64,000 nt of DNA from Octopus vulgaris (taxonomy: Eukaryota): assembly GCA_951406725.2 (NCBI GenBank), contig OX597837.1, positions 7,254,001 through 7,318,000 of the forward strand, given 5' to 3'. Below are positions 5,867 to 60,289 of the stretch, piece by piece. A program made the position numbers and the translations under genes. The number at the start of each line of letters is the position of its first letter. Position 1 is the first letter of the stretch. Below the pieces are notes generated by a model. That model ran no database searches. It was not told the origin of the DNA and saw only the letters and a list, made by a program, of their open reading frames with translations.

Positions 5867-7569
5867 ACACACACAAATACATATATCTTTGTGTGTGTTT
5901 CTATGTATTATAAGTTTTGTTCTTTTATTCTTACAACCAGCAACTAATTTTATTTTCATTTTAAATATTAATATTAATCTCATAAATATTTGTCTTTACA
6001 AAGAAATTTCTTTAATCTTCAGTCTTTAATCTTACTACTCTGTATTTTTATTTTTCTAAACTTTTCTACATCAGTCTTTCTGCCTCTGTGAAAATGTATT
6101 TTAATTTTGAGCATTCTATTTCTTGAAATCTTAAAAATAAGACAGATAAGCCATGGTAGAAGTATTATTATTTTTGGTTTTAATTTCTTAGTGACTGTTC
6201 TTATTTCTTCTCCCGCTTTGCTTAGTTCTGCTCTACCTTTTACCCATAGCTGCTGCCCCTGTCCTAGACTTCTTAAACACTGCACCATAACAAAAAGCAA
6301 TGATTTAGAGTGGCAGTTGAAAAAGAGGATTGGTAGCAGTATTTGTAGTAGAAGTAGTATTATAATCTATAATGAGTGGTTGTGGCAGTGGTGGTATTAG
6401 TGGTTGCGGGTGATTTAGTCTGGATAATGCTGCTGATGGTGGCGGTGTTGTTACCATTGTCATGTTGTAGGAATAGCCATTGTCTATAGGGTATTAAAAG
6501 AGTTCTTTGTGAATAGAATAACTATTGCATGTGTATATAAAACACACACATATACATATATATTATATATTAGAAGCTGAAGCTTTTTGAATAATTACTC
6601 TGAGTTTCATACAGCCAATTTCTGAAATGACAGTCATGCTGCCATTTTTTAATTGAAATGATTGCTAACATGAAACTCAGAGAAACACCCCGAAAAGATT
6701 CAGCTTCCAATAAGGTATACAATCTATGTATTGAGTACCTTTTTTTCATTCGCTCGTAACCAAAAACATTCAGTCCACATATACATGTAGGTGTATACAT
6801 ATATATAGAGACACACTTGTTAATACATACATGTGTGCGTGTGTGTGTGTGTGTAGAAAAGGAGAGAGAGAGAAATTTCCTTAAAAAGCTGAAAAATAAT
6901 AATTAAAAATAAAAAATTAAACAACTTAAAATCAAAAGTATGATTAAAAAAATAATAAAAATTCCACTTTGTCCAAAAGATGAAAAACTGTTTATCTTCA
7001 TTTCCTTTAAACCATTTCATAATCATCTTCATATATACATATACATATATATATATATACATATATATATATGTATAGTCTGTATGCATGTCTGTATATG
7101 CATGCTGTCTGCATGCATTCATGTGTGCGCGAGCATATGTGTCTCTTTTACTTCTTTGATTTCTTTATTCCCCAAAGTATACTGGGTAGAGTGTAGAGGA
7201 TTTACCATCATCATCTTCTTCTGCTTCTTCTTTGATTTTTTTTTTCCTCTTTAGCGGGGTGTGTTGTTATTCTTTTCTTTTTTTTTTTTTCCTTTTTTTG
7301 TTTCCAAACTTGCTGATGTATTTGTGTCTGTGTGGATGTATATATATATTTTTTTTTTTTCATTCTTTGAAAAGAGATTTTTTTTTCTGTTGCTGTTGAT
7401 GTTTTTTTCTTTCATTTTAAAATTTAAAAATTTTTTTCAAGTTCTTTAAATATCAATTTTATAATGTTTCCAATTTCTCTCCTTTTCTGTCTTTTTTACT
7501 CTTCTTTTTATTGGTATTATCTTTTTTGCTTGTTTGTTTAAACATAACAAAAACAGAGAAGTCATCATT

Positions 7570-8209: not shown

Positions 8210-8317
8210 AACTTATTTGTTTTATATAAAAAAAAAATCAGACAGCCTGTCTTGCTGTCAGATTCAGGAAAAAAGAGTTTCTTGCCATCCGCTTCATAGC
8301 AACGTACTCACGTGACC

Positions 8318-8362
8318 TCAGTATGGTGCAAACCGCTGGTAACCACCCCTGTAAACAGTAGC
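8318..8362 (-). CDS. RBFOX1: RBFOX last coding exon (ATVYRGGYQRFAPY*), carrying the C-terminal RFAPY PY-type NLS
   Basis: ctgttgcag|GCTACTGTTTACAGGGGTGGTTACCAGCGGTTTGCACCATACTGA. YRGGYxRFAPY* is the canonical nuclear RBFOX C-terminus. Confidence 0.97.
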   Translation of the reverse strand, partial: ATVYRGGYQRFAPY

Positions 8363-9310: not shown

Positions 9311-9940
9311 CTATGATGCTCAAAAATTCTTTCTTTTTTTCTAAGTTCCATCATTAGAGTGACCACACCACTTCTTTAAAAACTACAATCCACAGGTGAA
9401 TTATTCAAACACCAAAATTTCTTTCATTCTTTCCTTTTTCTAAATTCTTTCATTAAAGTGACCACTCCACTTCTTTAAAAACTAGTCCCGAGGTCAATTA
9501 TTCAAACCCCCAAATTTCTTTCCTTCTTTCTTTTTTCTAATTTCCATCATTAAAGTGACCACTCCACTTCTTTAAAAATTACAGTCCAGAGGTGAATTAT
9601 TCGAACCCCAAAATTTCTTTCATTCTTTCCTTTTTCTAAATTCTTTCATTAAAGTGACCACTCCGCTTCTTTAAAAACTAGTCCCGAGGTCAATTATTCA
9701 AACCCCCAAATTTCTTTCCTTCTTTCTTTTTTCTAATTTCCATCATTAAAGTGACCACTCCACTTCTTTAAAAATTACAGTCCAGAGGTGAATTATTCGA
9801 ACCCCAAAATTTCTTTCATTAAAGTGACCACTCCACTTCTTTCAATTATTCAAACCCCCAAATTTCTTTCCTTCTTTCCTTCTTTCTTTTTTCTAATTTC
9901 CATCATTAAAGTGACCACTCCACTTCTTTAAAAACTTCAA
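9280..9940. repeat. Minisatellite with a ~98-bp unit and a 196-bp higher-order dimer
   Basis: The ttattc(a/g)aac anchor recurs at 9401, 9498, 9597, 9694 and 9793 (spacing 97/99/97/99), then in truncated units. Confidence 0.9.
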
Positions 9941-16715: not shown

Positions 16716-17824
16716 GCGAATTCTATTGAAGAACTGTAACTCTGTTGGTGCCACATAAAAAAAAAAAAAACACTCGTACCAGTGCGGTGTAAAAGTACCC
16801 GGTACATTCTGTACAATAGTTGGTGTTAAGAAGGGCATCCAGCCATAGAAACTATGCCAAAACAGACATGGGGTCTGGACAGCCCTTCAGCTGCTCAGCC
16901 CCTGTCAAACTGTCCAACATATGCCAGTATGGAAAAACGGATTGATGATGATATGATAATGAAACCATCTCCTATAATTCTGAGGGTTTGTACTTAGGTT
17001 ACAAATGATAGTTAATTCTTGGTTGTACTTAATTTGAATTTTTGGAACTAAAAATAATTTACTAAGTCGATTTAATTAACCAAAAATAAATATACATGTA
17101 TTAACGAAGTAAAAAATTAATAGTGCTGGCTTAAAAGAAAGAAGTAATTTTTTTTTCCTTTTTTGTTAATGAAGATAGGTTTTAGTAAAACATTTTAACG
17201 AATACACCTGAAAATTTTGAGATAGAGATAAATAGGTAGGGAGAGAGAGACAGAGAGTGAGAGAGAGAGAGAGAGAGAGAGAATGAGAAAGAGAGAGAGA
17301 GAACATGAATATAAAATCATTTCTGTTCATAAAAATTGGAAAACAATTTGGTTTTGACAAGGATGAAAGATGATGACGATGATGATTGTAATGATGGTGA
17401 TGACAATGATTGTGATGATGATGATGATGATGATGATGAGAAACTAAAGAAATAAGAAAAACAATTTCATTCAATGCAGCAATAAACAGTGATAAAATAC
17501 AGAACAATACGATTACAATAATAATAATAATAATAATAATAGTAATAATAACAATAATGAGAATAATAATAATAATTTTCAGGCCATTTTTGCCCAATTT
17601 TGGATTGTTTTTCTTTCTTTTTTTCTTTTCTTTTGCTTAAAGTATTTTTTCTTTTTTTTTTTCTTTAGATAAAAAACAAAATTGGAAAATATTAAATGCC
17701 TTTCCGAAAAAAGCACCTAAATACATATAAAATATTTTAGGCTATGGGTTGGCAGCAAGCAAACTTTAAAACACAACATCTACAATATTTTAAATCTAGC
17801 AGAAAAAAAAATATACTATACATA

Positions 17825-17865
<41 letters not shown>

Positions 17866-18010
17866 TTATATATATATTATATAAATATATATATATATAT
17901 ATGTGTATATAAATATATATTTTATAAATATATATATATGTGTGTATATAAAAAGTAATAGTGAAGAGACAAGGCACACAAGCATGCTGGGATTGAAACG
18001 GAAGACCTAC

Positions 18011-18077
18011 CCCATATCCGGTGACTGGTCCGATACTGTGTCCCAAATAGGGGTCTGCCGCATACTCCCTGCCATAC
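18011..18077 (-). CDS. RBFOX1: RBFOX penultimate coding exon, 67 nt (YGREYAADPYLGHSIGPVTGYG), phase 2-0
   Basis: tgcatgtcttacag|GTATGG...ATATGGG|gtaggt. Matches the Fox-1 C-terminal motif YGRVYAADPY and is also seen in ORF 17816..18088. Confidence 0.96.
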
Positions 18078-18085
18078 CTGTAAGA

Positions 18086-18158
18086 CATGCAACTGATGGG
18101 TCACCAAACAAACCCACTACATGCAGGCAGAGCAGCAAAATTTATTGTAACTCATGCA
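18086..18158 (-). promoter_or_regulatory. Cluster of three UGCAUG sites upstream of the 67-nt exon
   Basis: Plus-strand catgca at 18086-18091, 18120-18125 and 18153-18158 in non-microsatellite sequence. An extra GCATG lies downstream of the exon at 17983-17987. Confidence 0.75.
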
Positions 18159-18247
18159 GAACCTCAAACAAGAGATCATCAGCCACAATGTTTTAGCTTA
18201 TAGCCACCAGAAGTAGGAAAAAAAAACGTGTACATACTTATGCATAT

Positions 18248-18290
<43 letters not shown>

Positions 18291-18643
18291 TATATATATA
18301 CATACATATATATACATATATACATACATATATATACACATATATATATGCATATATATACACATATATACATATATATACATACATACACACAGACATA
18401 TGTATGTATACATACATATATAATTATATGTCTAAGTACACATGTGTGTATGTGTATGTATATATATATATATATATACACATGTATATATATATATATG
18501 TATATATATATACATATATATATGTATATGTATATATATAGATATATACATACACACACAAGGCTATATATATATATATAAATATATATGAAAAAAAGTA
18601 GTAATAGTAGAAGTAGTAGTAATAGTAGTGGTGATAATTATAA

Positions 18644-28306: not shown

Positions 28307-28404
28307 CCAGCCGCGTACGTGGCTGCTGTCGCTGCTACAGTGGGGATTGCATAGCGTGTTGCAGCCGCATAGCCTGCAGCTGCATATGGCTGGGTTGTAA
28401 CAAG
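28307..28404 (-). CDS. RBFOX1: RBFOX exon, 98 nt (LVTTQPYAAAGYAAATRYAIPTVAATAATYAA), phase 0-2
   Basis: gtatttcag|CTTGTT...GGCTGG|gtaagt. Resembles vertebrate GYAAYRYAQP..ATAAAYS; phases are compatible. Confidence 0.93.
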
Positions 28405-30070: not shown

Positions 30071-30128
30071 CTGATATCGATCAGCTGCTGCATATGTCGC
30101 TAAGAAGGGGTCTTGGTGATACACTCCA
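30071..30128 (-). CDS. RBFOX1: RBFOX exon, 58 nt (GVYHQDPFLATYAAADRYQ), phase 2-0
   Basis: gcctttcag|TGGAGTG...TATCAG|gtaagt. Similar to the vertebrate VVYQDGFYGAD segment and also seen in ORF 29954..30139. Confidence 0.93.
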
Positions 30129-31681: not shown

Positions 31682-31829
31682 GCGGCGTACGGTAAAGCTG
31701 CTGCAGTTGTTGTCAAGGGCGTCGGGTGCCTGAATGCTGCTGCTGCCGCTGCTGCGGCGTATACTCCTCGTGCCGTTACAGCCGCTGCTGCTCGACCACG
31801 AGTCAACGTCACACCTCGTAAAGCAGCAG
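31682..31829 (-). CDS. RBFOX1: RBFOX exon, 148 nt, start of the Ala/Tyr-rich C-terminal domain (AALRGVTLTRGRAAAAVTARGVY...LPYA), phase 1-2
   Basis: tttctgtag|CTGCTGCT...TACGCCGC|gtaagt. GC-rich coding island resembling vertebrate AAYRGAHLRGRGR..VY..FR; phases match both neighbours. Confidence 0.93.
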
Positions 31830-46585: not shown

Positions 46586-46646
46586 CATTTGGAATTGCGG
46601 GGTTAACGGCTTTTTTGGTCATAACACGGGCAGTGGCATTGTTCAC
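46586..46646 (-). CDS. RBFOX1: RBFOX exon, 61 nt (VNNATARVMTKKAVNPAIPN), phase 0-1
   Basis: ctag|GTGAACAATGCC...CCAAATG|gtaag. VNNATARVMT is the RBFOX signature at the end of the RRM, and the exon is in frame with the 93-nt exon. Confidence 0.97.
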
Positions 46647-60180: not shown

Positions 60181-60289
60181 CATGCACCTCAATTTTTCGG
60201 CCCTCAACAACTGTTCCGTTCAGTTTTTCACGTGCTCGGTCGGCGTCAGCGCTATTTTGGAAAGTTACAAAACCAAATCCCTGCATGCA
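60181..60289 (-). promoter_or_regulatory. UGCAUG RBFOX-binding sites at the 3' splice site (60284-60289) and within the 5' splice site (60181-60186) of the RRM exon
   Basis: Acceptor TGCATGCAG| and donor |GTGCATG are read directly; a further TGCATG lies at 60594-60599. Confidence 0.85.
60188..60280 (-). CDS. RBFOX1: RBFOX/Fox-1 exon, 93 nt, second half of the RRM ([31 protein letters not shown]), phase 0-0
   Basis: The minus strand reads gtgcatgcag|GGATTTGGT...AAAATTGAG|gtgcatg. The translation carries the RNP1 motif GFGFVTF and is near-identical to the vertebrate RBFOX RRM exon of the same 93-nt size. Confidence 0.98.

Follow-up and report, generated by a model that had tools for sequence, protein, structure and literature searches.

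The window analyzed here, a stretch of 64,000 nucleotides of Octopus vulgaris DNA, carries on its minus strand the 3' part of an RBFOX (Fox-1) gene whose last exon can be read in two frames, one ending in FAPY, a PY-type nuclear localization signal, and the other, shifted by one nucleotide, in TEVT. We consider it probable that the following elements hold jointly: the second frame is held open by the coding of the first, it is entered by skipping of the penultimate exon, the skip is probably under feedback from RBFOX itself, the product would be a cytoplasmic form, and the agreement of its C-terminus with that of RBFOX2 is coincidental. The gene is an ordinary Octopus RBFOX and the TEVT feature itself is real; what remains is a variant of a known RBFOX switch, together with a lead that this switch is autoregulated and old.

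The gene occupies seven exons from 60280 to 8362, and their translation coincides with the annotated O. vulgaris fox-1 homolog (P0125) over 189/189 residues. The single Fox-type RRM expected of RBFOX proteins was matched by Pfam RRM_1; Pfam Fox-1_C, a model that appears to be vertebrate-biased, found no match in octopus P0125 or P0093 but does match the mammal-like P0026. In order of transcription, the exons on the minus strand are the RRM exon (93 nt, 60188-60280), E2 with the end of the RRM and a linker (61 nt, 46586-46646), E3 encoding the Ala-rich C-terminal domain (148 nt, 31682-31829), for which a protein search gave no match, E4 (58 nt, that is 3n+1, 30071-30128), which by sequence and phase would be the positional counterpart of vertebrate B40/M43, E5 (98 nt, 28307-28404), the penultimate exon E6 (67 nt, likewise 3n+1, 18011-18077), and the last coding exon E7 (8318-8362). 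The RRM exon has TGCATG in both of its splice-site regions (60284-60289 and 60181-60186), 9 nt before and 2 nt after the exon. The RFAPY end of the main frame fits the C-terminal R-X(2-5)-PY half of the hPY-NLS (consensus from PMC3126832), and, as judged by eye, the hydrophobic first half of that signal has no clear match in octopus RBFOX.

E7 begins at 8362, right after a CAG acceptor. Its main frame reads ATVYRGGYQRFAPY up to a stop at 8320-8318, and its +1 frame, spanning 8361 to 8308, reads LLFTGVVTSGLHHTEVT up to a stop at 8310-8308; the two stops are thus separated by 7 nt. The first-pass annotation had noticed both translations, FAPY-stop in frame 0 and HHTEVT-stop in the shifted frame, and both are indeed located on the minus strand at 8362-8308. 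The RBFOX2 isoform with the TEVT end to which it referred also exists in mammals: rat Rbfox2 isoforms have FAPY or TEVT ends with stops 7 bp apart (PMC5577181), and the RBFOX2 delta-exon-10 form ends in PTEVT and moves to the cytoplasm (review, PMC11380049). A +1 stop is possible at none of the 14 codon junctions of E7 under any synonymous coding; thus, the +1 frame is open because the ATVYRGGYQRFAPY codons cannot make a +1 stop, and its openness, being imposed by the main-frame codons, is no evidence of selection. The single difference between O. vulgaris and O. bimaculoides is silent in the main frame, as judged from the protein comparison, and replaces S with N in the +1 frame.

With respect to the route into the +1 frame, exon arithmetic indicates that, among single-exon skips, loss of E6 alone yields TEVT-stop in octopus: E5 is then joined to E7, which is read in +1 and itself contains the stop. 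Skipping of E4, the B40-type event, runs into a TAG in the +1 frame of E5, with the stop 95 nt before the last junction. Since this TAG blocks the long +1 frame of the RBFOX2 type, the octopus and RBFOX2 +1 frames are not one dual-coding region. The idea of a dual-coding last exon is plausible in octopus by way of the E6 skip, whereas the entry by the RBFOX2 route fails. The E5-E7 junction is present in 7/7 full-length O. bimaculoides models retrieved, with 169/170 residues equal to the skip form of the window and a C-terminus that matches the +1 frame, one residue excepted; moreover, the insect model P0315 has the same penultimate-exon skip junction followed by another tail. The 3n+1 length of the penultimate exon in relatives is not counted as evidence: automatic acceptor picking gave 22/30 such exons and curation by eye 29/29, but the curation is partly circular and a conserved intron phase is expected anyway. 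The set of 29 leaves out L016, as ambiguous, and L037, L060, L072 and L078, which are too short.

The flanks of E6 suggest how such a skip might be controlled. Three TGCATG RBFOX-binding motifs lie upstream of E6 on the minus strand (18086-18091, 18120-18125 and 18153-18158; 14, 48 and 81 nt from the exon), the sole sense-strand cluster of three among the 31 sites in the window, and a GCATG lies 24 nt downstream (17983-17987). The Poisson probability of the triple is 6e-5 per 150 nt, with a fairer estimate of about 0.01-0.02 over 14 exon flanks; a chance cluster of three TGCATG occurs on the antisense strand at 7085-7115. Across 28 homologous loci and the window, TGCATG is found within 150 nt upstream of the penultimate exon in 12/29, compared with 3/29 upstream of the last exon, 3/29 downstream and 1/29 antisense; the Fisher p of 0.015 is optimistic, since the 29 loci are related. 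This motif ranks first of 180 letter permutations and is present in 7/15 lineage groups; within the same 150 nt it is missing in the other 8/15, including the RBFOX1-like L023, and the RBFOX2-like L020 has it beyond 150 nt only. RBFOX binding upstream of an exon is described as promoting skipping (PMC5577181). The UGCAUG sites suggest, on the basis of position and sequence, a feedback switch that would remove the PY-NLS and escape nonsense-mediated decay (NMD).

Switches of this general kind are known in mammals, where loss of the PY end renders RBFOX cytoplasmic (PMC3126832, PMC11380049). In RBFOX1 (FAPY/TALVP) and RBFOX3 (FTPY/IGTM), alternative splicing removes the hPY-NLS and gives rise to cytoplasmic isoforms (PMC3126832); the octopus case is alike in the removal of this signal and differs in the exons and tails involved, the +1 frames of RBFOX1 and RBFOX3 last exons lacking the TEVT end (L023, L046, P0221, P0223). 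The resemblance to the RBFOX2 delta-B40 (delta exon 10) form goes further, with the same last exon in the +1 frame, the second stop 7 nt on, the PY-NLS lost and the same last four residues. However, RBFOX2 enters that frame by skipping of a 40-nt exon, or by addition of 32 nt, and reads several exons in it, whereas octopus enters by the penultimate-exon skip, which occurs in 0/11 of the rat Rbfox2 isoforms covered by the accessible text of PMC5577181. Mammalian Fox genes are also described as autoregulating the skipping of their 93-nt RRM exon, and Drosophila has an equivalent exon (PMC3126832). The common element is that RBFOX represses an exon of the pre-mRNA of its own family, and the TGCATG at both splice sites of the octopus 93-nt exon is fitting for this known event, as far as the analogy with other Fox genes goes; the RRM-exon skip is in frame and produces a dominant-negative protein, whereas the E6 skip of octopus would shift the frame and change localization. 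Drosophila has cytoplasmic Rbfox1 isoforms (PMC8595405) and uses exons 14/15 and 17/18 alternatively (PMC8742874); the accessible part of PMC5778076 holds nothing further on the RBFOX C-terminus. Among the papers listed in literature searches, we found none on a TEVT form outside vertebrates or on penultimate-exon autoregulation; primary work on the cytoplasmic Rbfox1 of Drosophila and on the autoregulation of Fox genes may be relevant here.

To what extent TEVT is shared among animals was assessed by scanning a metagenome collection with a pattern that spans the codons of the last exon plus the first stop base, is blind to the 3' UTR and misses divergent exons. The scan returned 79 loci with 53 distinct RBFOX ends, which form 36 UTR groups in addition to the window. 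Compared with named proteins, these loci resemble bivalve, bryozoan, insect and vertebrate RBFOX1, RBFOX2 and RBFOX3 genes, and one large clade among them is probably annelid. The same pattern gave no match in prokaryote and viral collections. In this sample of 53 ends, which comprises neither other cephalopod 3' UTRs nor recognizable invertebrate deuterostomes, TEVT-stop occurs once, in the RBFOX2-like L020, and is absent from the remaining 52, including bivalve-like, bryozoan-like, insect-like, RBFOX1-like and RBFOX3-like ends. Agreement with T-E-V-T-stop falls off by position (48 of the 53 ends share the first T, 11 the E, 5 the V, 1 the second T and 2 the stop), and the preceding TACTGA is present in 22/53 loci. 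Three insect-like ends of one group read TEVS and then continue without a stop.

Protein records convey the same picture. In 20 of the 325 proteins retrieved, the last exon is read in +1; nine of these proteins end in TEVT, namely seven from O. bimaculoides, one from a skink and one mammal-like; the +1-frame tails of pigeon RBFOX3, turtle and insect proteins are unlike TEVT. The ending is shared by P0026, P0059 and locus L020, and was found in 0/148 further 50%-cluster representatives; querying with the P0093 tail that ends in TEVT recovered, among 44 candidates, only three O. bimaculoides clusters and two weak matches. The first-pass annotation had proposed an ancient bilaterian overlapping frame, to be checked in the post-stop sequence of animal RBFOX genes; in the ends sampled, L020 excepted, TEVT-stop is not retained, the outcome that the annotation had named as refuting its idea, and the forced openness of the +1 frame and the failure of the RBFOX2 entry route in octopus likewise speak against the proposal.

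The V-T-stop of the octopus +1 frame is spelled by GTCACGTGA, an E-box-like palindrome at 8308-8316 on the minus strand that starts 1 nt after the main stop and is the sole copy in the window; it overlaps a donor-like AC/GTGAGT. In 54 sequences, the degenerate form GTCAYGTGA occurs 10 times within 100 nt past the stop (1.87 per kb), compared with 0.14 per kb farther 3' (9 in 62,359 nt) and no occurrence in 52,673 nt of upstream sequence, and its post-stop matches come from about 4-5 lineages at offsets of 1 to 114 nt. Of 11 loci in the large clade, four have GTCACGTGA in frame 0, four in frame 1 and three in frame 2; because the motif occurs at varying offsets and in all frames, any constraint acts on nucleotides. 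Around GTCACGTGA in these 11 loci of the one clade (L001, L005, L014, L024, L033, L040, L050, L056, L069, L071 and L077) there is a conserved 3' UTR block longer than the motif, 28-114 nt after the stop and thus at variable distance from it, and degenerate versions of the block are seen in L026, L030, L032, L042, L049 and L060. In four loci (L003, L007, L011 and L063), an E-box and a CCAAT lie about 10-11 nt apart, both within 100 nt past the stop, and in L011 and L063 a reverse CCAAT overlaps the stop as well. This spacing is like that of the USF/NF-Y composite, whose CCAAT stands about 10-12 bp behind the E-box (PMC4889920); however, the putative RBFOX copies sit in the 3' UTR, and the octopus window, with 0 composites at 10-12 bp spacing, has the E-box alone. 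A donor-like AC/GTGAG lies within the motif both in octopus (8305-8313, minus strand) and in the RBFOX2-like L020, and the contig from run X7 is not spliced there. The suggestion that the region past the stop holds a conserved element is therefore upheld in so far as GTCAYGTGA is enriched just past RBFOX stops in several lineages, whereas homology with the vertebrate GTGACGTGA, which differs from the octopus motif in that its E-box core (CACGTG) is broken, is no more than a possibility. An RNA structure at the stop was rejected, the fold being unremarkable (z -0.29).

Three other explanations have to be weighed against the proposed one. The most mundane is that octopus makes no real TEVT protein, E6 being constitutive, the O. 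bimaculoides models an assembly-gap artifact and the UGCAUG sites a means of tuning, for example, the choice among in-frame E6 3' splice sites; we regard this as a serious possibility, if somewhat short of an even chance. All seven full-length O. bimaculoides models lack E6, and none of the models retrieved from this species contains E6 or ends in FAPY, whereas the O. vulgaris and Argonauta proteins, together with six cephalopod-like ones extending into the last exon, include it; as long TA arrays flank E6 on both sides (17811-17950 and 18244-18589), an assembly gap could explain the TEVT models. In run X7, which is presumed to be RNA, contigs join E6 to E7 (depth 76) or retain the intron (depth 14), and the loose end of the E7 contig was placed at 18012, within E6. 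No skip contig was found in X7, the one informative run of four, whose reconstructed stretch is too short for E5-E7, so that a skip could show only as a loose end, and contigs drop rare variants; the penultimate exon is included in 18/18 spliced transcript loci. Furthermore, in-frame 5' extensions of the homologous penultimate exon are common in relatives, and in octopus an in-frame AG lies 15 nt ahead of the E6 acceptor (18078-18092, minus strand), the use of which would draw the nearest TGCATG into the exon. What tells against a purely constitutive E6 is that the sole sense-strand UGCAUG triple in 64 kb stands at an exon-repressing position and that an independent insect model, P0315, has the same skip; in addition, RefSeq models usually require junction support. 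On balance we lean, if only slightly, toward the view that octopus makes a regulated TEVT isoform.

The two remaining explanations take the agreement with RBFOX2 as homology. That TEVT is a functional peptide, preserved as a dual-coding C-terminus since the protostome-deuterostome split, seems to us highly improbable, despite the match at 5/5 positions, the two nucleotide differences that leave the residues of the +1 frame unchanged, and the use of this frame by database models in both lineages. Its absence from 52/53 ends would require at least six independent losses, the entry routes differ, the observation was singled out for this very synonymous pattern, and the main text of a 2026 survey of human dual-coding regions, based on vertebrate alignments only, does not include RBFOX (10.64898/2026.05.28.727796). 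As for chance, the 10-nt pattern for E-V-T-stop has a frequency of 3.9e-5 per position in the window (5/127,982) and 1.5e-3 in the first 100 nt of the RBFOX 3' UTRs of other animals (7/4,683), so that TEVT-stop would be expected in a single octopus-RBFOX2 comparison with a probability of about 2e-5 to 6e-4; once about 37 lineages and three vertebrate paralogues are allowed for, the rough estimate becomes 0.002-0.07, before counting the many genes inspected. The single-comparison chance is thus low, and coincidence is a parsimony argument, not a demonstration. Alternatively, octopus and vertebrate RBFOX2 might share by descent a short element GT[C/G]ACGTGAG right past the stop, either a DNA site of the bHLH E-box/CRE-like kind or a U1-like donor, with TEVT as its by-product in both lineages. 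The enrichment of GTCAYGTGA near the stop, the agreement of octopus and L020 at the third base of the Thr codon and at the base after the stop, beyond what the peptide needs, and the E-box/CCAAT pairing at USF/NF-Y spacing in four loci all point in this direction. Nevertheless, we deem it unlikely, considering that the motif is scattered over about 4-5 lineages at offsets of 1-114 nt, with the CACGTG core broken in the vertebrate copy, that RBFOX1-like, RBFOX3-like and arthropod-like loci are without it, and that the octopus UTR cannot be aligned with bivalve-like UTRs and has neither a CCAAT partner nor a stable fold.

Returning to the E6-skip reading that we prefer, nuclear RBFOX would bind the three UGCAUG sites and repress E6 of its own pre-mRNA, a negative feedback in which removal of the 67 nt shifts the last exon into the +1 frame; the repression by RBFOX itself is probable given the placement of the sites, and the entry into the frame agrees with both exon arithmetic and database models. 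The skip product would escape NMD because its stop sits in the last exon and, without the PY-NLS, would be expected to act as a cytoplasmic form, by analogy with mammalian RBFOX1/2/3. The last five positions shared with RBFOX2 would not be inherited, T and E being largely forced by TAC-TGA and V-T-stop being supplied by GTCACGTGA, which may sit 1 nt past the octopus stop by happenstance. In a broader and more tentative form, which we find possible but rather doubtful, the switch would be an old bilaterian one: RBFOX would bind UGCAUG ahead of the 3n+1 penultimate exon in its own pre-mRNA and force the skipping of that exon, so that the last exon is read in a stop-free, NMD-proof +1 frame and a nuclear form gives way to a cytoplasmic one whose tail is specific to the lineage. 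The clearest case would be octopus, with its three sites. RBFOX is a main splicing regulator of neurons and muscle, with nuclear and cytoplasmic forms that have different jobs, and the PY-NLS-removing switches known in mammals use a different exon in each paralogue; a self-triggered penultimate-exon switch common to molluscs, other spiralians and insects, if true, would be a candidate for the ancestral mechanism. The case also carries a caution, in that a forced open frame combined with a recurrent 9-nt motif can mimic 600 million years of peptide conservation.

Several further features of the locus and its relatives were observed. Several spiralian sequences carry in-frame insertions between the penultimate and the last exon (P0084, P0127, P0078 and L010; 17, 41 and about 36 residues), at a site that presumably corresponds to the position of the RBFOX1 A53 exon; neither the 17-residue cassette of P0084 nor other such insertions were found between E6 and E7 in the window. 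The last intron of the octopus gene holds a tandem array of about five 97-bp units (9326-9820). Finally, if E5 (28307-28404) alone were skipped, the last two exons would be read in the third frame, which is also open, with a stop 125 nt into the last exon.
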